Assembly: GCA_031409275.1 (NCBI GenBank)
Contig: JANNXA010000050.1
Coordinates: 64,001-128,000 of the forward strand
Length of the DNA: 64,000 bases
Reading direction: 5' to 3'
Source of the DNA: Planctomycetota bacterium
Lineage (GTDB): Bacteria; Planctomycetota; B15-G4; SIAN01
Below are positions 1-36,094 of this stretch, piece by piece. Made by a program: the position numbers and the translations under genes. The first letter of the stretch is position 1; each line of letters begins with the position of its first letter. Below the pieces are notes generated by a model. That model saw only the letters and a program-made list of their open reading frames with translations, was not told where the DNA came from and ran no database searches.

Positions 1-298
1 CCGCCACCAGCGTCTGCGTCCCGTGCGCGGCGCTTGGCACCCCCGTCTCGAGCGCCACCACCGGTCCGCGCCGGCGCCATGCCGCCACCACGACGGGCGG
101 CGTGCAACGCACGGGCAGGAGATGGGGCCGCCATGGCGTCATCGCAGCGGCGATGGTAGCGCCGGGCCCGAGGGCCTTGCCGAGCGCCAGCGCGGCGGCG
201 AGCATCGCCTCCGTCTCATCCGCCTGCGCGACGGAGCCGTCGATGGCCGCTTGCCGCGTCGTTCCTTGCTGGTCCGCGCCGCTCCTGCTGCTCGTCAC
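1..298 (-). CDS. Possible 5' part of a gene running off the left edge (hypothetical)
   Basis: Open minus-strand frame from a GTG near 298 to the edge (…ADETEAMLAAALALGKALGPGATI…VVALETGVPS…) with coding-like codon usage; no family recognised and start uncertain. Confidence 0.3.
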   Translation of the reverse strand, partial: MTSSRSGADQQGTTRQAAIDGSVAQADETEAMLAAALALGKALGPGATIAAAMTPWRPHLLPVRCTPPVVVAAWRRRGPVVALETGVPSAAHGTQTLVA

Positions 299-20475: not shown

Positions 20476-21039
20476 ATGAGCAAGAAGAAGTCGCCTCCGC
20501 TGCCCCCCATCGTCGGCGTGCTGATGAGCACCAAGGGCGAATGGGAAACGCTGCAGCACACCAGCGATACGTTGAAGAAGCTCGACGTGCCGCACGAGTG
20601 CCTGATCATCTCGGCGCATCGCACGCCCGATTTCCTCGCGGACTACGCGCGCAGCGCCGAAGAGCGCGGCCTGCAGGTGCTGATCGCGGGCGCGAGTGGC
20701 GCCGCCCATCTGCCTGGCATGCTCGCGGCGCACACGCTGCTGCCGGTGTTCGGCGTGCCGCTCGAGAGTCACGCGCTGAAGGGGATGGACTCGCTGCTCT
20801 CCATCGCGCAGATGCCGGCCGGAGTGCCGGTCGGGACGCTCGCCATCGGCAAGTCGGGCGCGATCAACGCCGCGCTGCTCGCCGTCGCGATGCTGGCGCG
20901 CCACGACGCGGAGCTGCGCGAACGCTGGGCGACCTTCCGCCGCGAGCAGAACGAGCGGGTGCGCGCCGAACGGGTCGGTCCGGTGAGCCGTGCCCCCGCC
21001 GCGCCCGGCCTCGCACCGAAGACGCAATCGGCAGGCTGA
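20476..21039 (+). CDS. purE: N5-CAIR mutase PurE, copy 1 (divergent phosphate loop)
   Basis: SAHRTP, AAHLPGM, LPVFGVP, DSLLSIAQMPAGVPV; MSTKGE replaces MGSxSD. Confidence 0.85.
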   Translation: MSKKKSPPLPPIVGVLMSTKGEWETLQHTSDTLKKLDVPHECLIISAHRTPDFLADYARSAEERGLQVLIAGASGAAHLPGMLAAHTLLPVFGVPLESHALKGMDSLLSIAQMPAGVPVGTLAIGKSGAINAALLAVAMLARHDAELRERWATFRREQNERVRAERVGPVSRAPAAPGLAPKTQSAG

Positions 21040-21089
21040 TCGCCGCAGCGCCGCGCGCACGCTCCGCCCCCACACCGCACGAGGAAACG

Positions 21090-21599
21090 ATGAGCACTGC
21101 CAAGGTCGGGATCGTCATGGGCTCGGCTTCGGACCTGCCGAAGCTCGAGCGGGCGATCGAAGTCCTGAAGGGGCTGTCCATCAGCGTCGAGGTGCGCGTG
21201 ATGTCGGCGCATCGCACGCCCGAAGATGTCGGCGAATGGGCCAGCAGCGCCGCGAAGCGCGGTCTGCAGGTGCTGATCGCGGCTGCCGGTGGCGCCGCAC
21301 ACCTCGCGGGCGCCGTCGCCGCTCGCACGCTGCTGCCGGTCATCGGCATCCCGGTCGCGACGGAACCGTTCAACGGCCTCGACTCGCTGCTCGCCACCGT
21401 CCAGATGCCGCCTGGCGTTCCGGTCGCCACGGTCTCCGCCGGTGCGTGGGGCGCCGAGAACGCCGCGTTGCTCGCCGCGCAGATCCTCGCCCTTTCCGAC
21501 TACGAGCTCGCGGCGCGCCTCGCTGCCGACCGCGCCAAGCGCGCCGACAAGGCGCGCCAGGCCGATCGCGACCTGCAGCAGGGCCGCAAGGGCAGCTGA
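21090..21599 (+). CDS. purE: N5-CAIR mutase PurE, copy 2
   Basis: MGSASD, SAHRTP, AAGGAAHLAG, DSLLATVQMPPGVPVA. Confidence 0.92.
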   Translation: MSTAKVGIVMGSASDLPKLERAIEVLKGLSISVEVRVMSAHRTPEDVGEWASSAAKRGLQVLIAAAGGAAHLAGAVAARTLLPVIGIPVATEPFNGLDSLLATVQMPPGVPVATVSAGAWGAENAALLAAQILALSDYELAARLAADRAKRADKARQADRDLQQGRKGS

Positions 21600-24721: not shown

Positions 24722-25249
24722 TCAGCTCCCGCGCCGGCGTGTGAGTTCGCGTGGATCGACGAAGCAGAGCCAGCGCATCAGCATCGCGCCCAGGAGCAGG
24801 CTCGCCGCGTGGAGGACGTGGTTCAGCCACGCGCGCTCGCCCGCCAGTTGCCCGGCCATCTTCAGGCCGAGCCAGTGATAGCTCTTCTCCAGTTCCATCA
24901 CGACGCACATCAGCGCGAAGAGGAGGAGGAAGGAGAAGCGGTAGAGCGACGACTGCCACAGCCGCTGCGTCTCGCGCCGATCGCGCGTGAACAGGCGCTT
25001 GATCACGTAAAGGCCGGCGATGCTGCACGGGACCGCCAGCAGCTTGAACCACTGCACGTTCAAGTCGCCAAGCCAGGTGCCGTCCGACGGCGCGCGCACC
25101 AGGTAGCGCAGCGGCGAGTCGCCCAGTCGCTCGCTCCAGCCGGGATCGATGTCCGTCAACAGGTCGGAGGCGAAGCGGCCCGCGCCGATCAACGCCAGCG
25201 GCACGGCGACGAGGAGCGAGGCGCTCGGCGAGCCGCCCTTCGTGCTCAT
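24722..25249 (-). CDS. Hypothetical membrane protein (about 4 TM)
   Basis: ATGA-coupled to the aminopeptidase; hydrophobic segments. Confidence 0.6.
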   Translation of the reverse strand: MSTKGGSPSASLLVAVPLALIGAGRFASDLLTDIDPGWSERLGDSPLRYLVRAPSDGTWLGDLNVQWFKLLAVPCSIAGLYVIKRLFTRDRRETQRLWQSSLYRFSFLLLFALMCVVMELEKSYHWLGLKMAGQLAGERAWLNHVLHAASLLLGAMLMRWLCFVDPRELTRRRGS

Positions 25250-27246
25250 GGCCGCCACTTCAGCAGCTCGTCGATCGTGTCGCGCGAGACGGCGTGGTAG
25301 CTCGCGCGCGCCTTGGCGTAGATCGACTGCGCAAGCGGCTTGCCCCAGTCGCTCTTCATCAGCTCCTGGTAGAGCGGCTTCAGGAACTTGCGCCGCCCCT
25401 GCGAGGTCAGGAAGTGGTCGAGCGCGGCGAACGCCGGCTCGTAGCGGTGCGTGATGCACGGCAGCAGCCAGGCGAAGAGCACCTCCGAATTGCCGCGCTG
25501 CGAAAGCGCGAAGGCTGCATCGAGTTCGGCGAGCTGCGCGTGGGTGGCGCTGGCGGGAAGCTGACGCAGGAAGTGCTGCCACTGCTGCGTCGTGAATCCC
25601 GCGACATCGAGGGAGCGCGCCGGCGTCCCGGCGAGGAACCGCTCCATCGCGGTGGTCGCGCGGGCGAGAGCGGTCGACGTCGCGCGCGGGCAGTTCGACG
25701 GCAGGCCCGGCCCATCGACCCACGCGGGGATCTGGAGCGCGCGCTTCCACTCCGGCTGTCCGGTCAGCAGTTCGCGGTCGAGGAAGGCGAGGAAGTCGTC
25801 GGTCGTGCGGCTCGTGAAGGCATTGCCGTCGAACCACGCGCGCAGGAAGCGGTCGAACCGCTCGCGCCCCACCGTTTCCTCGATCGCCTGCAGGAAGCGG
25901 GCGCCCTTCTCGTAGGCGATGTCGGTCATGCCGTCGTCGGGGTTGCGCCCCTCGAGCGCAAGGCGCAGATGAGTGTCCTTGCGCTGCCCCGCGGCGGTCA
26001 TCTCGGCGACGCTCTTCTCCAGATCCTGCAGCCCCAGCACGGCCAGCGCTTCGTCGAACTCCTCGCCGAAGAGCGCCTCCATGATCCGGTGCTCGAAGTA
26101 GACGGTGAACCCTTCGTTCAACCAGAAGTCGTTCCAGGTGGCGTTGGTGACCAGGTTGCCCGACCAGCTGTGCGCAAGCTCATGCGCGACCAGCGACACC
26201 AGCGAGCGATCGCCCGCGAGGATGGTGGGCGTCGCAAAGGTGAGGCGCGGGTTCTCCATGCCGCCGAACGGGAAGCTCGGCGGCAGGACCAGCACGTCGT
26301 AGCGCCCGAAGCGGTACGGGCCGTAGAGCTTCTCGGCCGCACCGATCATCGAGTCGAGGTCGACGAACTCGGCGGAGGCGCGCGCAATCACCGGCCGTTC
26401 GGCGTAGACGCCGCAGTTGCGGCCGAGCGACGCGAAGGCGAGATCGCCCACCGCGAGCGCCATCAGGTAGCTCGGGATCGGCTGCGGCATGTCGAACTCG
26501 TAGACCCCGTCGGCACGCGCGACCTGCGGATTCGACGCCGACATCAGCGCCAGCAGCGGCGGTCCGGGCGGCGCCTTCAACGCGATGCGCGCGGAGTAGG
26601 TCATTCGCACCGCCGGCGAGTCCTGGCAGGGAATCCAGGTGCGCGCGAGGATCGCCTGCGACTGCGTGAAGAGGAACGGCGACTTGCCGCCCGCCGTCTG
26701 TTCCGGCGCGAGCCACTGCACGGCGGCCGCGGCCGGGCTCGTCGCGTAGTCGATGTGGACCCACAGCACTTCGGCGCCGCCGCCAGCAACGGCAACAGCC
26801 ACCGGCGGGAGGTCGAGCGTGAGCGCGGCGCCGAAGTCGGGCTGCGCCGGACTCAAGGTGAAACGAGCCGGTTGCGCTGCCGCGAGGCCGCCCGCATTCG
26901 GCGCGGCGCGCGACGTCGTGACGCGCGCAATGGAGAGGTCACGCGTGTCGAGCACGAGTTGCGTGGCGCCGGGCTGCCGCGCCACCTCGAGGCTCGCGCG
27001 ACCCGCCAGCGTCTTCGTGGCGAAATCGACCGCGAGGTCGAGCTCGAGCCGCTGTACCCGCGCCTCCTCCGGTCGCGAAAAGGAGTGGCTGTCGCGCGCC
27101 ATGGATCGCTCTCCCACGTGGCCGGAAGTCGCCGATGCCGCGGTCGCGCCACCCGCCGCCGCTCTCGGCTCATCGAGCGCGCAGCCCAGCGCCGCAAACC
27201 CCAAGAGTGCCGCGCATCCGGTTCGTCGTCGCACGATCGTCCTCAC
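25246..27246 (-). CDS. M1-family zinc aminopeptidase (LTA4-hydrolase-like), probable lipoprotein
   Basis: GGMEN, HELAH-x18-E, YEKG, GRRKF; lipobox AALGC if the GTG near 27246 is the start (alternative ATG 27102). Confidence 0.92.
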   Translation of the reverse strand: MRTIVRRRTGCAALLGFAALGCALDEPRAAAGGATAASATSGHVGERSMARDSHSFSRPEEARVQRLELDLAVDFATKTLAGRASLEVARQPGATQLVLDTRDLSIARVTTSRAAPNAGGLAAAQPARFTLSPAQPDFGAALTLDLPPVAVAVAGGGAEVLWVHIDYATSPAAAAVQWLAPEQTAGGKSPFLFTQSQAILARTWIPCQDSPAVRMTYSARIALKAPPGPPLLALMSASNPQVARADGVYEFDMPQPIPSYLMALAVGDLAFASLGRNCGVYAERPVIARASAEFVDLDSMIGAAEKLYGPYRFGRYDVLVLPPSFPFGGMENPRLTFATPTILAGDRSLVSLVAHELAHSWSGNLVTNATWNDFWLNEGFTVYFEHRIMEALFGEEFDEALAVLGLQDLEKSVAEMTAAGQRKDTHLRLALEGRNPDDGMTDIAYEKGARFLQAIEETVGRERFDRFLRAWFDGNAFTSRTTDDFLAFLDRELLTGQPEWKRALQIPAWVDGPGLPSNCPRATSTALARATTAMERFLAGTPARSLDVAGFTTQQWQHFLRQLPASATHAQLAELDAAFALSQRGNSEVLFAWLLPCITHRYEPAFAALDHFLTSQGRRKFLKPLYQELMKSDWGKPLAQSIYAKARASYHAVSRDTIDELLKWRP

Positions 27247-27413: not shown

Positions 27414-29510
27414 CTACTGCAAGAGCACGAAGTCGAGCGCCGCCGTGCGCAGGCGGTACTGGCTGTCGATCGCATAACCCGCCGACCAGGTCGGCGCGGC
27501 GCTCTCGCCGATGCGAGCGAGCGAGTCGACCGCCTGCCAACGAGTCGCGCGCCCCGTCGACGCGTCGTCGAGCAGCGCCACCAGTTCACCCGCGCTCCGT
27601 CGGCACTCGAACATGCCGAGCGCTTCGGCCAGCACCGCAGCGCTGGCATCGCTGGTCTCCCCTTCGAGGCGCGTCGCCAACCGCTCCATCGTTTCGAGCG
27701 AGCCCAGCCGCGCCAGCGCCCGCGCCGACGCGACCCGCAGTTCCGGCGAACTCGAATCGTCGTCGAGGCGCTCCGCGAGCGGCCGCCTGGCCATGGCCGC
27801 GACACCACCACCCGCCAACCCGAGCGCTTCGGCCCAGTAGGGCGCGCTCGACGTCGCCGCGTCGATCTCGAGGCGTCGCAGCAGTTCGGGCACCGCCGCG
27901 CGATCGCGCGCCAGACCCAACGCCAGACCCAGCGCCGCATCGGTCGAGGCGTTGCGCGAGATCGTCAACGCTTCGCGCAGCGTGGCGCACGCCTGGAAGT
28001 GACGATCCGAATCGCCCGCCTCGCCGCGCACGCCAATCCCGAGCGCGAGTGCGGCGAACGGCCGGTCGTAGGAGAGGCGCGGCGCGAACACGCGGTCGCC
28101 GAGGAAGTGCGCCACCGCGTCCGCAGCCGCTGCCGCCTCGGGATACGCCGCCGACGTCTCGAGCAGACGGCCAAGCGCCATGAAGGAGAACGAGCGCACG
28201 TCGGGCGCCCCGCGTCCGTCGCAGTTCTGCTGGAGGACCGAAACGAGTTCACCATCGCTGGCGCGGCCGAGCGCGCCGAGCGCGATGACGGCCGCCGTGC
28301 GCACCGCTTCGACCCCGTCGTCCGCCCCCGCGAGATGGACCAGCATCGGAAGCGCCGCGCGAGCGAGCGCCGGAGCGACGCGCGACATCGCGATCGCCGA
28401 CTGCGCGCGCACGAAATCGGTGGCGCGTGCATCGGCGAGCGTCGCCAGGAGCTTCGAGGCGACGGCTGGATTTTCGGGAGCAGCGTGCGCTGCGCCGAGC
28501 AGCGCCGCGCCGGTGATGTGCTCGCAATCGCAGGAGTCGGCCACCGCGAGCAGCGCCGCGGCACTCTCCGTCCCTTTCGCCAGTCCGAGCGCAAGCGCCG
28601 CGAGCTGGCGGCGACTGCAATCGATCGGACCGCCGGCGTCGACCAGAGCGCGCCCTTCGCGCGAGTCCGCCGCGATCGCCGCGAGCTTCGCGCGCGACTC
28701 GCCATCGCCGCAGAGGCCAAGCGCCACCAGCGCCGCGTCGCGCATGACGAGCCGATCGTCGTCGAGCGCGCGCACGACGAGCGGCGCCACCATCGCGCCG
28801 TCCCGCGCTCCCGCCACTCGCGCCAGCGCGAGCAGGGCAGCGCTCGCCACCTGCGGATCCTCATCGTGCAGCCGTTGCGCCAACCGCGGCCACAGCGTCG
28901 ATCGGAGGAACAGCGGATCGAGCGCTGCGACGTCGACGCGATCGGGGGTCTGGCCCGGCTCCGGCGAGGGCCAGAACGCGCCGCCACCGCTCCAGGCGAT
29001 GCCGTTCACGCGCCACCACTCTTCCCAACCGCCGATCGACTCGTCGTGCGCGCGGCGCGTGGCCGGGCCGCTGGCACGGGGCGCGCCGCCGGGCGGCGGC
29101 GGAGTGGCCGGTTTCGGATCGGCGCGCTTGGTCACGGGGCGCAACGCGGCCGGCGCCGGCTTTGGCGTCGCGGCCGGCGTGCTGTCGCGCTGGGCCGGTC
29201 CGTCCGACTTGGTCGACGGGCGCCGCGGGGTGGACGGGTGTTCGTGACCGTCCTTCGGGGTCGAGGTGCTGGGGCGGTCCTTGTCCGCTTCCGGCTTCTT
29301 CGTCTTGTCGCCGACGCCCTTGGTGCCTTTGCCGGACCCACCGGGTCCTTTGTGTCCCATCCCCGGTCAGAAACCCGGCGGCTCCGGCTGCTCGACGCGG
29401 CGATCGCCGGCGGGGTCGCCCGCCTGCGCCGATGCGGTGGCGACGAGGAGCGCACTGCCAGCTAGCAGCGCTCGGGTCAGGAGGAAGGGGGGATGCGATC
29501 GACGAGACAT
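27414..29510 (-). CDS. Exported HEAT-repeat protein with an in-frame UGA at codon 48 (29367-29369)
   Basis: GGAGGT RBS (29516-29521), ATG 29510, signal peptide, UGA, then in frame with the 648-aa ORF (Pro/Lys-rich linker, WEEWWRVN, many HEAT repeats). Confidence 0.7.
29334..29348 (-). promoter_or_regulatory. Candidate bacterial SECIS-like hairpin
   Basis: GGACCC-GGU-GGGUCC starting 18 nt after the UGA, with G at the start of the apical loop. Confidence 0.35.
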
Positions 29511-29721
29511 GGAGCACCTCCGATTCGCAATGGGGACGACCTACGGCAGATCGGGTGGACGATCCGTGCCAAGGAAATGGCGTACCGCGGCGTCGCACTC
29601 GGGGCCGACCGCTCGAGCATCGACCCGAACGGTCACGCCGTGGTAACCGATCGAGCCCGCGCGCCGAGGAAGCCGCGATTCGCGCGGCAAACCGTGACAA
29701 GTCGCGTCCGGCCGCTCGCCG

Positions 29722-30657
29722 CTAATCCGCCATCAGCAACAGCGGCACGCCTGCTGTCGCGAGCAACGTCCCGAACCACGCGATCCAGCGATAGCGCTCA
29801 TGCAGGATCCCGACGGCCATCGGCAGCAGGAAGAGCGGTGTGGTCGACAAGAGGCACAGCGCGACGCTGGCGTCGAGATTCGCGTAGGCCGCCTGCTGCA
29901 AGAAGATGCCGAGGAAGGTCGCGAGGAAGACGGCGACGAGCTCCCTGCGCATCTGCGGCAGCATGCGCAGCGGCGCGAAGTCGATGGCGCCCCGTCGCAT
30001 CGCCAGCGTCGCCAGGAACGTCCCGACCGCCGCGCCGCTCATTCGCAATGTCGAGCCGGGCAGCACCCCGACCGCGCTGATCGCATGGTGCGTCATCACG
30101 CCGGCGGTCGCATTGCACAGCGACGACACGACGCCGCACAGCGTCCCGCTGATGCGCAGCCGTCGCGCAGCGGCGTCGGCGACCGCGTCGCTCGCCCCGG
30201 TCGTCTCACGCTTCGCTCGCCCGAAGATCACCAGCAGCACGCCGCCAAGCACCATCGCGATGCCGCCAAGGTCGCGCATGCCCAGCGATTCGCTGCCGAG
30301 CGCGAAGCCGAGCGCCGCCGACCAGATCGGCGAAAGCTGGTTCAACGCGATCGCCGGCTGCGCGCCGAGTCGCTTCACCGCCTCGAAGAGGAAGACGTCT
30401 CCGACCGCCAGACCGAGTGCGCCGGACAGCAGCAGCACGCCGCCGTCGCGGGTCGCGAGTGACCGCCACGCGACGCCACCGTCGATCAGCAACGTCGACG
30501 TCCAGAACAACAGCAACGCGATGGCGATGCGAAACGCGTTCATCGCGCGCGGACCGTGGCGCACGATCGCCGCCTTGAAGAGGACGGTCGAGATCGCCCA
30601 CGACGCGGACGCGGCGAGCGCGGCGCTACCGCCGGCGACCGCTGGCGACCACGTCAC
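29722..30657 (-). CDS. DMT/EamA-family transporter
   Basis: About 10 TMs in two repeats; SGALGLAVGD, STTPLF. Confidence 0.85.
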   Translation of the reverse strand: MTWSPAVAGGSAALAASASWAISTVLFKAAIVRHGPRAMNAFRIAIALLLFWTSTLLIDGGVAWRSLATRDGGVLLLSGALGLAVGDVFLFEAVKRLGAQPAIALNQLSPIWSAALGFALGSESLGMRDLGGIAMVLGGVLLVIFGRAKRETTGASDAVADAAARRLRISGTLCGVVSSLCNATAGVMTHHAISAVGVLPGSTLRMSGAAVGTFLATLAMRRGAIDFAPLRMLPQMRRELVAVFLATFLGIFLQQAAYANLDASVALCLLSTTPLFLLPMAVGILHERYRWIAWFGTLLATAGVPLLLMAD

Positions 30658-32183: not shown

Positions 32184-32303
32184 GGTCGCAACCTTTTAGC
32201 GCCGCCACCGGAAGCGGTGGCTCCACGCTTGCGGCGCAGCGGCGGCACGGCTGTACTGCCCGACTCGCGAAGCAACGGACCCGGAATGAAGGAGGAGCGG
32301 GGC

Positions 32304-32969
32304 ATGAGCCAACCCGAGCAGCCCGAAAGCGCCAGCGGCGTCTCGCGACGTCGATTCCTGAAGGGAATGGGCGTGACCGCCCTCGCCGCGGGGGCGCTCG
32401 CCCCGAAGATGCCGGCGGTCGCCGTGCCAAACGGCTCTGCGAACGCTGCGCCGACCGCGCCACCGGCGACGCGCCTGTTCGGTCCCGCACCGGTCGCCGT
32501 GAAATTGCAGATCAACGGCAAGGTGCGCGAACTGCGGCTCGAGCCGCGCGTCACGCTTCTGGACGCGCTGCGCAACCACCTCGACCTCACCGGCGCGAAG
32601 AAGGTGTGCGACCGCGCCACCTGCGGCGCCTGCACGGTGATCGTCGACGGCAAGGCGATCTACTCCTGCACCATGCTCGCCGTCGAGGCGCAGGGCAGGG
32701 CGATCGAGACCGTCGAAGGGCTCGCGGAGGCGAGCGGCGGCAACTCGACGATGCAGCGCTGCTTCGTCGAGAACGACGCGCAGCAATGCGGCTTCTGCAC
32801 CCCCGGATTCGTGATGGCGTGCGAGTCGTTCAAGCGCGCCAACGGCAGCGCGACGCGTGAACAGGTGCTCTCCGAGCTCGGCGGCAACCTCTGTCGTTGC
32901 GGCACCTACCACGGCGTCGCCAATGCCGTCGCGGACGCTCTGAAACTCGGCGCGAACGGAGGCAAGTGA
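32304..32969 (+). CDS. 2x[2Fe-2S] subunit with Tat signal, PaoA/YagT-like
   Basis: SRRRFLKG Tat motif; CDRATCGAC…C; QCGFC…NLCRC. Confidence 0.92.
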   Translation: MSQPEQPESASGVSRRRFLKGMGVTALAAGALAPKMPAVAVPNGSANAAPTAPPATRLFGPAPVAVKLQINGKVRELRLEPRVTLLDALRNHLDLTGAKKVCDRATCGACTVIVDGKAIYSCTMLAVEAQGRAIETVEGLAEASGGNSTMQRCFVENDAQQCGFCTPGFVMACESFKRANGSATREQVLSELGGNLCRCGTYHGVANAVADALKLGANGGK

Positions 32970-32970
32970 C

Positions 32971-35094
32971 ATGGTCGATCTTGCTTGGCCCGATCCGGGC
33001 GACTGCTCGATCCTCGGCAAGCGCACGACGCGCATCGACGGCCCCGACAAGACGACCGGTCGCGCGAAGTACACCTTCGACATCAACCGGCCGCGCATGT
33101 TGTGGGCGAAGTTCGCGACCTGCCCGTACGGACGCGCGAAGATCACGGCGCTCGACACCAGCGCGGCGGAAGCGATGCCCGGCGTCGTCGCCGTCGAGGT
33201 GATCGCCAGCGTCAGCACCGAGTGCAAGGTCGCCTTCCAGGAGGTCGCGATCGTCGCCGCCGAGAGCGAAGAGATCGCGCGCGAAGCGGCGCGCCGCATC
33301 AAGATCACGTGGGAGGTGCTCGAGCCGTGCGTCCATGACGACGACGTCGACATGGCCGGCAACAAGGCGAAGAAGGGCAAGGAGCAGGTCACCGACGGGT
33401 TCGATGCCGCCATCGACGGTGCGGCGGTCGTCAGCGAGACCGAGGTTGGCTGCTCGATCCTCACCCACTGCTGCCTCGAATCGCACGGCTCGATGGTCGA
33501 GGTCAGCGAGCAGGACGGCAAGGTCGCCGTCACCGCCTGGGCCTCCACGCAGGCCGTCTCCGGCATCGGCGGCGAATTCGCGCAGGCGATCGGCGTCGAC
33601 GGCTCGCAAGTGCACGTGATCTGCCAGCACATGGGCGGCGGCTTCGGCTCGAAGTTCGGCGCCGACTTGTGGGGCGCGTCGGCCGCGAAGCTCGCGCAGA
33701 AGACCGGTCGTCCGGTGAAGGTGATGCTCGAGCGCGACATGGAGATCGCGCTGGCCGGTTCTCGCCCGTCCGCGTTCGCGCGGATGCGCGTCGGCGTGAA
33801 CGACGACGGCGCGATCGTGGCGTGGGAATCGGCCGCATGGGGCAGCGGCGGCAACGGCGGCGGCATGGGCGCGCCCGGCCTGCCCTACGTCTTCGGCAAC
33901 ATCCCGAACCGCAAGACGCAGACGACGCCGATCTTCACCAACACCGGCGGTGCCCGCGCCTGGCGCGCGCCGAACCACCCGCAGATGTGCCTGTTGACCA
34001 TGGCCGCGCTCTCCGATGCCGCCGCCGAGCTCGGCATGGATGAGCTCGAGTTCTTCCGCAAGAACCTCGAACTCACGGCGCGCGCCGACGTCTACCGCGA
34101 GGAACTCGCGATCGCCGCGGAGCGCATCGGCTGGAAGTCGAAGTGGAAGTCGCGCGGCGAACAGAAGGGCGTGCTGCGCCGCGGGCTCGGCCTCGCGATG
34201 CACACCTGGGGCGGCGGTCCTCACACCAGCAACGTCCAGTGCACGCTCCATCCCGACGGCGCCGTCGAGATCCGCTGCGGCACGCAGGACCTCGGCGTCG
34301 GCGCGCGCACCGCGATCGCGGTGGTCGCAGCCGAGACGTTCGGCCTGCCCATCGATCGCATCACCGTCCTGATCGGCGACAACCGCTATCCGGCCTCGGA
34401 TGGCTCGGGTGGCTCGACCACGATCGGCGCCATCAGCTCCGGCACCCGCGACGCGTGCATCAAGGCGATCAACCAGGTCATGGCCGCCGTGGCGCCCGAA
34501 TTGAACGCGGCGCCGGAACAGCTCGTCGCCAAGGAGGGAATGGTGCGCGCGGCGGGATCGACGGCCGGCGGGCTGCCGTTCGCCGAAGCGTGCCGACGCC
34601 TCGGCGCGCAGCCGATCGTCACGATGGGAACGACGCAACGCGCGCTCGCGAGTTCGCAGGTCGGCGGCGTGCAGATGGCCGAAGTCGAGGTCGACTGCGA
34701 GACCGGCATCGTCCGCATGCTGAAGATGGTCGCGGTGCAGGATTGCGGCCGCATCATCGACCTGCTCACGACGGAGAGCCAGGTGCGCGGCGCGATGATC
34801 ATGGGAGTCTGCGCGGCGCTCTACGAGGAGCGCGTGATGGACCCGGTGACGGGCGCGCTGCTCAATCCCGACATGGAGTTCTACAAGCTCGCCGGCATCG
34901 CCGACGTCGGTGAGCTCGACGTCCACATGATGCAGACGGACGCGCACCTGAAGCGTGGCGTGATCGGCATCGGCGAGCCGCCGGCGATCTCGCCGATGGC
35001 GGCGATCAGCAACGCGGTGGCGAACGCCATCGGCGCCCGCGTGAAGCGCTGCCCGATGACTCCCGATCGCGTGCTCGCGGCCTTGAAGGCGTGA
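32971..35094 (+). CDS. Molybdopterin-binding subunit, xanthine/aldehyde oxidoreductase family (PaoC/YagR-like)
   Basis: GGGFGSK, WRAPNHP, QDLGVG, SGGS, SQVRG, GIGEP. Confidence 0.9.
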   Translation: MVDLAWPDPGDCSILGKRTTRIDGPDKTTGRAKYTFDINRPRMLWAKFATCPYGRAKITALDTSAAEAMPGVVAVEVIASVSTECKVAFQEVAIVAAESEEIAREAARRIKITWEVLEPCVHDDDVDMAGNKAKKGKEQVTDGFDAAIDGAAVVSETEVGCSILTHCCLESHGSMVEVSEQDGKVAVTAWASTQAVSGIGGEFAQAIGVDGSQVHVICQHMGGGFGSKFGADLWGASAAKLAQKTGRPVKVMLERDMEIALAGSRPSAFARMRVGVNDDGAIVAWESAAWGSGGNGGGMGAPGLPYVFGNIPNRKTQTTPIFTNTGGARAWRAPNHPQMCLLTMAALSDAAAELGMDELEFFRKNLELTARADVYREELAIAAERIGWKSKWKSRGEQKGVLRRGLGLAMHTWGGGPHTSNVQCTLHPDGAVEIRCGTQDLGVGARTAIAVVAAETFGLPIDRITVLIGDNRYPASDGSGGSTTIGAISSGTRDACIKAINQVMAAVAPELNAAPEQLVAKEGMVRAAGSTAGGLPFAEACRRLGAQPIVTMGTTQRALASSQVGGVQMAEVEVDCETGIVRMLKMVAVQDCGRIIDLLTTESQVRGAMIMGVCAALYEERVMDPVTGALLNPDMEFYKLAGIADVGELDVHMMQTDAHLKRGVIGIGEPPAISPMAAISNAVANAIGARVKRCPMTPDRVLAALKA

Positions 35095-35110
35095 GCGGAG
35101 GAGCGCAACG

Positions 35111-36094
35111 ATGAACGCATTCGAATACGCCCGTCCCACGACTCTTGCCGAGGCCGTCGCCCTGCTCTCCCCCACCGAGGGGGAGACGGCGCTGCTGGCC
35201 GGCGGCACCGACCTCTTGAGCTTGATGAAGGACTTCGTCGTCGAGCCCAAGCGCGTCGTGTCGCTGATGGGAATCGAGCCGCTGGCGCAGATCACCATCG
35301 GCAACGATGGCCTGCACCTCGGCGCCACGGTGACGCTCGACGCGCTGATGCAGTCGGGCGCCCTCAACCAATGGGCGGCGAAGTGGCCCGCCCTCTGGCA
35401 CGCGACCGCCGGCATCAAGAGCCCGCAACTGCGCGCGATGGGAACGGTCGGCGGGGAACTGCTGCAGCGGCCGCGCTGCTGGTACTACCGCCGCGGCCAC
35501 GGCCTGCTGGCGCAGGACGCGAAGGGCGAGTCGATGGTCGCGAGCGGGGACCATCGCTACCACGCGATCCTCGGCAACAGCGGCCCTGCCAAGTTCGTCC
35601 ACCCGTCGAGCCTCGCGCCGGCGCTGATCGCCTGCGGAGCCCTCGCGGAGCTGACCTCGCCACGCGGCACGCGCACGCTGCCAGTCGCGGAGCTCTACCG
35701 CACCCCGACCTCGAGCGGCGAGCGCGAGACGACCCTGGCCCTCGATGAAGTCCTCACCGCGGTCGTGCTGAAGAAGCCAGTCGTGAAGAGCGCGACCTAC
35801 GAAGTCCGCCCGCGCCAGGGACTCGACTGGCCGCTCGTCGCGGCGGCCGTGGCGCTCGAGCTGAACGGCGGCAAGGTGGCCAGCGCGAGCGTCGTGCTCG
35901 GTCACGTCGCGCCGACTCCGTGGCCGGTCGTTGAAGCGGCGACGCTGGTCGGCAAGACGCTCGATGACGAGACCATCGCGGCCTTCGCCGCTGCGGCGCT
36001 GAAGAGCGCCACCCCGCTGAAGGACAACGCCTACAAAGTCGACCTCGCGCAGGTCGCGATCCGACGGGCGTTCAAGGCGGCGATGAAGAGCTGA
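35111..36094 (+). CDS. FAD-binding subunit (PaoB/YagS-like)
   Basis: AGGTDL, PQLRAMGTVGG, QRPRCWYYR, HPS, N.YKV. Confidence 0.9.
   Translation: MNAFEYARPTTLAEAVALLSPTEGETALLAGGTDLLSLMKDFVVEPKRVVSLMGIEPLAQITIGNDGLHLGATVTLDALMQSGALNQWAAKWPALWHATAGIKSPQLRAMGTVGGELLQRPRCWYYRRGHGLLAQDAKGESMVASGDHRYHAILGNSGPAKFVHPSSLAPALIACGALAELTSPRGTRTLPVAELYRTPTSSGERETTLALDEVLTAVVLKKPVVKSATYEVRPRQGLDWPLVAAAVALELNGGKVASASVVLGHVAPTPWPVVEAATLVGKTLDDETIAAFAAAALKSATPLKDNAYKVDLAQVAIRRAFKAAMKS

Follow-up and report, generated by a model that had tools for sequence, protein, structure and literature searches.

An apparently uncatalogued, exported HEAT-repeat selenoprotein candidate in Planctomycetota, with selenocysteine predicted on a flexible N-terminal arm

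Metal sites built on an N-terminal His are known from the histidine brace of LPMO and CopC and from the His1-Cys2 nickel hook of NiSOD, and where exported proteins conserve a His at the N-terminus, it typically belongs to a Cu or Ni site. As for selenocysteine (Sec), the bacterial SECIS (bSECIS) model specifies a loop of 3–9 nt with G at position 1 or 2, a stem of 4–16 bp, a distance of 16–37 nt from the UGA and an MFE of at most −7.5 kcal/mol (PMC13188914). Table 1 of the same paper catalogues 119 prokaryotic selenoprotein families; those that are exported or thought to bind metals include the ABC substrate-binding proteins SaoX/SaoB, MbdU and a copper-chaperone-like family, and the catalogued motifs include U-P-G-Q in PrdC form 2 and VPGU in a thioredoxin (PMC13188914). 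That table holds no HEAT or other helical-repeat family and none with Sec on a Pro/Gly tether, the word HEAT has 0 occurrences in the main text of that paper, in that of deep-Sep (PMC12013277) and in the main text and part of the supplement of BSepDB (PMC13326102), and a literature search for selenoproteins with HEAT repeats returned only papers that were unrelated, judged by their listing.

The gene considered here lies on the minus strand of the window, the whole 64,000-nt stretch of Planctomycetota DNA that was analysed. Translation of 29510-27414 (-) gives MSRRSH...EPPGF, one stop, and then PGMGHK... through to a TAG; the sole internal stop is the TGA at 29369-29367, which is codon 48, with 47 codons before it and 650 after it in a product of 698 residues. 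The first-pass annotation had proposed that the gene begins at ATG 29510, 150 nt upstream of and in frame with the called start ATG 29360, behind a GGAGGT ribosome binding site. The translation bears out the shared frame, and the Shine-Dalgarno GGAGGT is seen at 29521-29516 (-), 5 nt before ATG 29510, with an anti-SD duplex energy of −14.7 kcal/mol compared to −4.5 kcal/mol at ATG 29360. These energies were computed with what we take to be the anti-SD motif, the core of which occurs at the apparent 16S 3' end on contig C51. The codon score of the reading frame upstream of the TGA is neutral (−0.5), the other two frames being worse (−13 and −21), and no sigma-70 promoter was found for the gene.

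Codons 1–30 (29421..29510, -) comprise the start codon and a predicted signal peptide with a hydrophobic core score of 2.31; cleavage, after A-x-A near residue 30, was judged by eye. A Tat signal, considered for the RR near the start, was set aside by eye, as the Phe that we take to belong to the consensus is missing and relatives lack the RR. The predicted mature N-terminal segment (codons 31–47; 29370..29420, -) is without the His-Gly-Gly start typical of the family, and is followed by the TGA (29367..29369, -), predicted to encode Sec at about mature residue 18 in the context F-U-P-G-M-G-H. The internal ATG used as start by gene callers (29358..29360, -), which has a weak ribosome binding site, encodes Met51 of the U-P-G-M motif. 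A Pro/Gly/Lys/Thr-rich linker, predicted to be disordered, occupies codons 49–161 (29028..29366, -), and leads to a family motif W-x-x-W-W (codons 162–166; 29013..29027, -), invariant in alignment A3, and to the HEAT-repeat region with the TAG stop (27414..28898, -; Pfam HEAT_2 E 4e-16, alphaRep PDB sequence matches).

The hairpin GGACCC-GGU-GGGUCC, claimed to lie 18 nt after the UGA, was found at 29348-29334 (-). Its 6-bp stem starts 18 nt and its GGU loop 24 nt past the UGA, at −9.1 kcal/mol, and by our own script it passes all four published bSECIS constraints (6 bp, GGU, 24 nt, −9.1). It also resembles the hairpins of the selD, msrA and UxxC genes of the same genome. A strict hairpin of this kind, defined as a perfect stem of at least 6 Watson-Crick pairs closed by a triloop that begins with G, at +16..37, is seen after 26 of the 3316 predicted TGA gene stops in the source genome (0.8%) and 0.5% of its Cys codons, as against 9 of its 157 TGA read-through candidates, with 3925 genes called by a simple codon model. 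Folding of the whole 76-nt region is no better than that of shuffles (z = +0.59), so the signal consists of the local hairpin and its position. Read on the plus strand, the hairpin looks like a terminator as well, which is within chance (2 found, 1.1 expected).

The target scores 59.5 bits against the Pfam HEAT_2 model (cut-off 27.7), which is matched by 15/15 members of alignment A3; the Pfam scan of the target returned HEAT-type families only, and none of the NCBIfam models reached its cut-off. The best PDB sequence matches are alphaReps, then deoxyhypusine hydroxylase and Rpn2/Rpn1 (for Rpn2/Rpn1, E ~1e-8 to 1e-6, a lead regarding the fold only), while an ESM Atlas look-up gave only unnamed HEAT clusters. 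To our knowledge, no function is known for this HEAT-repeat family. Homologs occur in 9 copies in the source genome, in 42/42 genomes of its class and in 336/339 of a second class, and share the signal peptide, the Pro/Gly arm, W-x-x-W-W and the HEAT repeats. Paralogs often stand in tandem pairs or triplets (L255, L118, L119, L124). Some members are fused behind VIT and vWA domains, with the arm as an internal linker (G000:C28:56779-60372 (-), that is L257:6780-10373; L041; P0015), and in a second fusion type the arm and HEAT body are preceded by an N-terminal domain that bears a motif resembling R-C-A-[IV]-A-x-L (L053, L062, L064, L071, P0104, P0116, P0158).

A metagenome scan with the single target protein as query found no matches. 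For scanning loci, alignment A1 proved too heterogeneous and A2 was therefore used, giving a survey of 231 homologous frames (loci L020-L248) among the matches listed. Within these, 185 frames, from 170 distinct genes, run on from an in-frame signal peptide without interruption, and 9 read signal peptide, TGA and arm, although 9/231 is not an unbiased frequency because the sample was partly picked for short open frames; TAG or TAA at the UGA-type position was found in 0/231 of the listed frames. The rest comprise 22 partial or low-scoring frames that were skipped, 7 at locus edges and 8 unclear ones, including L036 (a Cys form) and L229 (TAG, without signal peptide, 190 nt from the contig end). 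The nine UGA forms are L020 (the target), L073, L074, L037, L067, L239, L159, L065 (= L199) and L200. TGA is in any case the commonest stop (117/180), and nine TGA out of nine would arise by chance with P = 0.02, or 0.12 counting 5 clades; as kin are not independent, P values for this and for the hairpin and tip comparisons overstate the case.

Conservation of the hairpin, which the first-pass annotation had made a test of the Sec reading, holds in these relatives. Among the matches listed, 7/9 UGA forms have a hairpin of −7.5 kcal/mol or lower with G in loop position 1–2, compared to control rates of about 9–15% for the same criterion (16/185, 415/3316 and 105/692). L073 (−2.9), whose hairpin has an extended stem with one mismatch, and L159 (−3.1) miss the strict cut-off. 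In the ortholog pairs L067/L239 and L065/L200 the stem sequences differ and the pairing is kept.

A near relative likewise retains the TGA rather than a sense codon. When assemblies were checked, contigs from runs X1 and X2 were identical to the target, although they may themselves be the source of the assembly, and X5, from another study, supplied one contig (depth 2.8) that spans 29137-29491 at 94.6% identity. It differs at 19 positions in 355 nt, with 0 in the TGA or hairpin. Upstream of the TGA, 3/4 listed changes are synonymous, codons 35–77 carry a single change, also synonymous, and in codons 78–110, within the linker, 12 codons are altered with 9 amino-acid changes. Constraint seems to act on the frame of the signal peptide and on the surroundings of the UGA, while the linker drifts.

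The Sec machinery sought in the genome is complete: selA, selB and selD score above curated cut-offs, and tRNA-Sec (selC) is present at 76 bits. The selD gene is interrupted by its own TGA and is one of nine strict-hairpin candidates, the others being an MsrA-like gene, three of UxxC/UxxT type, two ASPIC/UnbV propellers, one unclassified gene and the target, where some of the labels are presumptive and rest on motif. Both selB and selC were found in all six other checkable genomes (G010, G020, G027, G040, G061, G367), the UGA loci L073 and L074 being metagenome loci outside this genome-level check. Since selA is near-universal in the two Planctomycetota classes (40/42 and 120/121 genomes), co-occurrence with the machinery cannot discriminate. 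Sec use thus appears near-universal in both classes, and several genomes have two selA or selB copies.

Further Sec candidates of the source genome deserve mention in their own right. G000:C14:294193-297498 (-) (L258:4194-7499) and G000:C34:63098-65827 (-) (L259:4099-6828) encode large FG-GAP and ASPIC/UnbV propellers with thioredoxin-like tails, each with an in-frame TGA at an alike site (D-L-U-S-F-W-W and D-T-U-S-T-Y-W) and a G-triloop hairpin. G000:C14:122370-123089 (-) (L260:2371-3090) encodes a 240-residue protein with no Pfam match and with the hairpin, in which G-G-U-G-G-G-R-C directly follows a short hydrophobic start, making it a candidate for Sec at an exported N-terminal tip. TGA-interrupted genes of MsrA-like, UxxC and U-P-T-C type with the same G-triloop hairpin also lie at C37:62433 (+), C23:26950 (+), C27:33213 (-) and C28:70576 (-); the last matches Thioredoxin_7, and the labels of the others are presumptive and rest on motif.

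Because the near relative keeps the TGA, the Sec machinery is present and hairpins accompany the UGA in relatives, we consider it very likely, with a probability of roughly 0.87, that the codon-48 UGA is read as Sec, judging from sequence comparison, and we hold export of the protein to be highly probable too. The earlier proposal, in which a HEAT-repeat protein is exported and carries Sec on a flexible arm at its N-terminus, outside any redox fold, is thereby supported, and the outcomes named beforehand as refuting it did not turn up.

What Sec might do there is suggested by the residues that replace it. A FastTree phylogeny of the HEAT cores (midpoint root, approximate supports) places the nine UGA forms in five separate clades from 2 classes. 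The target's clade has 7 members: the 3 for which DNA is available all carry the UGA, at a mutual identity of about 33%, and the other 4 are gene calls without signal peptide, as would be expected if callers had started past a UGA. Among the matches listed, a His stands just past the signal peptide in 156/170 uninterrupted genes and in 0/9 UGA forms; the tip consensus of the His forms is H-G-G-x-Y-R-G-P, and in L037 and L074 a His directly precedes the UGA. Of the representatives that have a signal peptide (109), 83 show His only and 12 neither residue, while 14 are flagged for Cys, which plausibly belongs to the mature chain in about 10 of them. These calls come from a simple hydrophobicity heuristic; 2/9 Cys calls in the survey loci (L155, L161) probably lie inside the signal peptide.

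Several Cys forms are close kin of UGA forms. P0053 (Q-C-D, Cys just past the signal peptide) is in the sister group of the target's clade (support 0.92), L059 (Q-C-P) is sister to L067/L239 (U-P-G-M; support 0.90), and further Cys forms are L036 (Q-C-P-A-M), P0154 (G-C-P-P) and P0132 (H-C). U-P occurs in 7/9 UGA forms and U-P-G-M in 5/9, from three clades, and a Met within five residues is found in 6/9 UGA forms as opposed to 7/170 His forms. Sister proteins have their Cys at the corresponding place in the tip, but in MAFFT alignments U and C fall in different columns; the low complexity of the arm leaves no single U/C column, the equivalence of U and Cys is positional, and this non-aligning arm is the main weakness of the Sec/Cys argument.

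Taken together, we hypothesize that translation starts at ATG 29510, giving the signal peptide, and that SelB inserts Sec at the UGA using the hairpin just downstream. After export of the chain and cleavage near residue 30, Sec would lie about 18 residues behind the tip and 113 residues ahead of the HEAT body, on a flexible Pro/Gly arm of roughly 115 residues. In most family members the mature chain would begin with the conserved His (HGG-x-YRGP), and in several lineages the tip would carry Cys or Sec instead, often beside Pro, Met and His (U-P-G-M-G-H in the target). Cys or Sec with Met and His would provide soft donors that suit ions such as Cu(I), and the tip may catch metal or hand it over to a partner held by the HEAT body. 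By analogy with N-terminal metal sites, a role of Sec as soft-metal ligand, through a His-to-Cys/Sec swap on a tethered tip, is the function that we favour at slightly less than even odds. More tentative is the combined proposal that the tip is a tunable metal ligand that in at least five independent switches went from His to Cys to Sec, with U-P-G-M converging three times, and that UGA plus ATG in some members lets selenium decide between an exported and a cytoplasmic form. A function that is neither metal ligand nor redox is doubtful.

Alternatively, Sec could be a redox thiol that the arm swings onto partner disulfides or oxidants, to be reset by Cys298 and Cys329 of the HEAT body or by exported thioredoxin-like proteins. 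Most selenoproteins in the catalogue are redox enzymes (PMC13188914), several thioredoxin-like Sec candidates are encoded in the source genome, and Cys298 (28617..28619, -) and Cys329 (28524..28526, -) are confined to the target's clade, both occurring in the same 9 of 11 members and in 0/212 others. However, P0005 and P0051 of this clade, which have neither His1 nor Cys/Sec at the tip, keep both Cys, so that a structural disulfide is the more likely reading of the pair, as far as these comparisons go; in the four remaining clades the UGA forms have neither Cys, and the His exchange at the tip would be left unexplained. A redox role is therefore possible yet on the unlikely side.

It is also conceivable that the UGA works as a selenium switch, compatible with the metal-ligand reading, in which the exported form is made with selenium, and ribosomes that fail to insert Sec terminate at the UGA and begin anew at the ATG 6 nt downstream, so that a cytoplasmic HEAT protein results. 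Reinitiation after termination close to a stop codon is a known process, an ATG lies 3–4 codons past the UGA in 6/9 UGA forms although Met makes up 0.5% of arm residues, and the gene call of P0002, an ortholog at 67% identity, begins at the same Met as the called start of the target. On the other hand, the ribosome binding site at 29360 is weak, the hairpin begins 9 nt past the ATG codon, a nearby Met is absent from three UGA forms, and Met follows Cys in L036 too, where a restart does not apply. We regard such a switch as rather improbable; a short cytoplasmic form from ATG 29360 may be a side product, and is not needed to explain the data.

Since UGA is the leakiest bacterial stop, SECIS-independent read-through as Trp or Cys, keeping expression low, could be invoked for the 2/9 UGA forms with weak hairpins, but a G-loop hairpin at SelB distance in 7/9, Cys rather than Trp in sister proteins and the complete Sec machinery make it very improbable. 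Smaller still is the chance of a nonsense mutation that left a pseudogene, or a relic signal peptide ahead of a now cytoplasmic gene. The family is indeed multicopy, with 9 copies in the source genome, and some homologs are broken in other ways in these assemblies (L113, L127, L132, L205, L229), but a relative at 94.6% identity retains the TGA and shows mostly synonymous differences upstream of it, the TGA recurs in three clade members about 33% identical, and TTC-TGA-CCG precedes a matching hairpin. An assembly or sequencing error, conceivable in a metagenome-derived genome compared across runs on assembled contigs rather than raw reads (codon 48 being covered by contigs from X1, X2 and X5 and not from X3, X4 and X6), is the least credible of all, because the relative X5 from an independent study keeps both TGA and hairpin, and X1 and X2 have the same TGA.

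The surroundings of the gene are ordinary. Downstream lies a leukotriene A4 hydrolase-type M1 aminopeptidase (25249-27102, -), and upstream are an EamA transporter and a phosphodiesterase-family gene, followed by a xanthine dehydrogenase-type three-gene cluster (coordinates given for these upstream neighbours are 29725-30657 (-) and 32286-36091 (+)); at 20476-21596 (+) are two genes in tandem that we take, from a sequence motif, to be purE-like. Across five UGA loci, four His-type loci of the source genome, one Cys-type locus and the window, a scan of 85/110 predicted ORFs (mostly HEAT genes and already known genes being left out) found no shared operon and no shared metal-handling genes near family loci, and the neighbours were not conserved.

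Compared with HEAT_2 and PBS-lyase HEAT proteins of alphaRep type (PF13646, PF03130), the target has the same HEAT_2 repeats and alphaReps as best PDB sequence matches, while its family adds the signal peptide, the HGG-x-YRGP tip, the Pro/Gly linker and W-x-x-W-W. The likeness to the histidine brace and the nickel hook is one without demonstrated sequence or fold relation: the family His is predicted to be the first residue past cleavage and has His-Cys (P0132) and His-Sec (L037, L074) neighbours, whereas the target itself lacks His1. Such a natural His/Cys/Sec series at one tip would offer a route to compare selenium with sulfur or nitrogen as ligand, using short peptides, and an initial way into the function of a large, uncharacterised family that nearly every genome of two Planctomycetota classes contains.

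Among the families of Table 1 in PMC13188914, the exported or putatively metal-binding members and the U-P-G-Q motif recall the target, although in Pfam and NCBIfam searches it matches none of the domains or Sec motifs listed there (Trx-like UxxC/CxxU and others). The gene also departs from the usual pattern, in which Sec belongs to the active site of a redox fold and aligns cleanly with Cys, so methods that depend on alignment would miss such selenoproteins, and gene callers trim the signal peptide of the target and file the protein as cytoplasmic. With known SelB/bSECIS genes it shares the in-frame UGA, a hairpin within the reading frame, the G-first 3-nt loop, the 6-bp stem, the 24-nt spacing and the presence of selABCD; it differs in that Sec would sit in an exported arm, predicted to be disordered, that lacks UxxC, CxxU and a catalytic fold, and in that the tip otherwise carries mostly His, Cys being a minority. 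Relative to the catalogue as given in that table, these proteins are apparently an uncatalogued group of exported HEAT-repeat selenoproteins with a standard SelB/bSECIS gene layout, and, if the metal-ligand reading is true, they would use Sec outside redox chemistry and outside any fold, as a metal hook that can be swapped.
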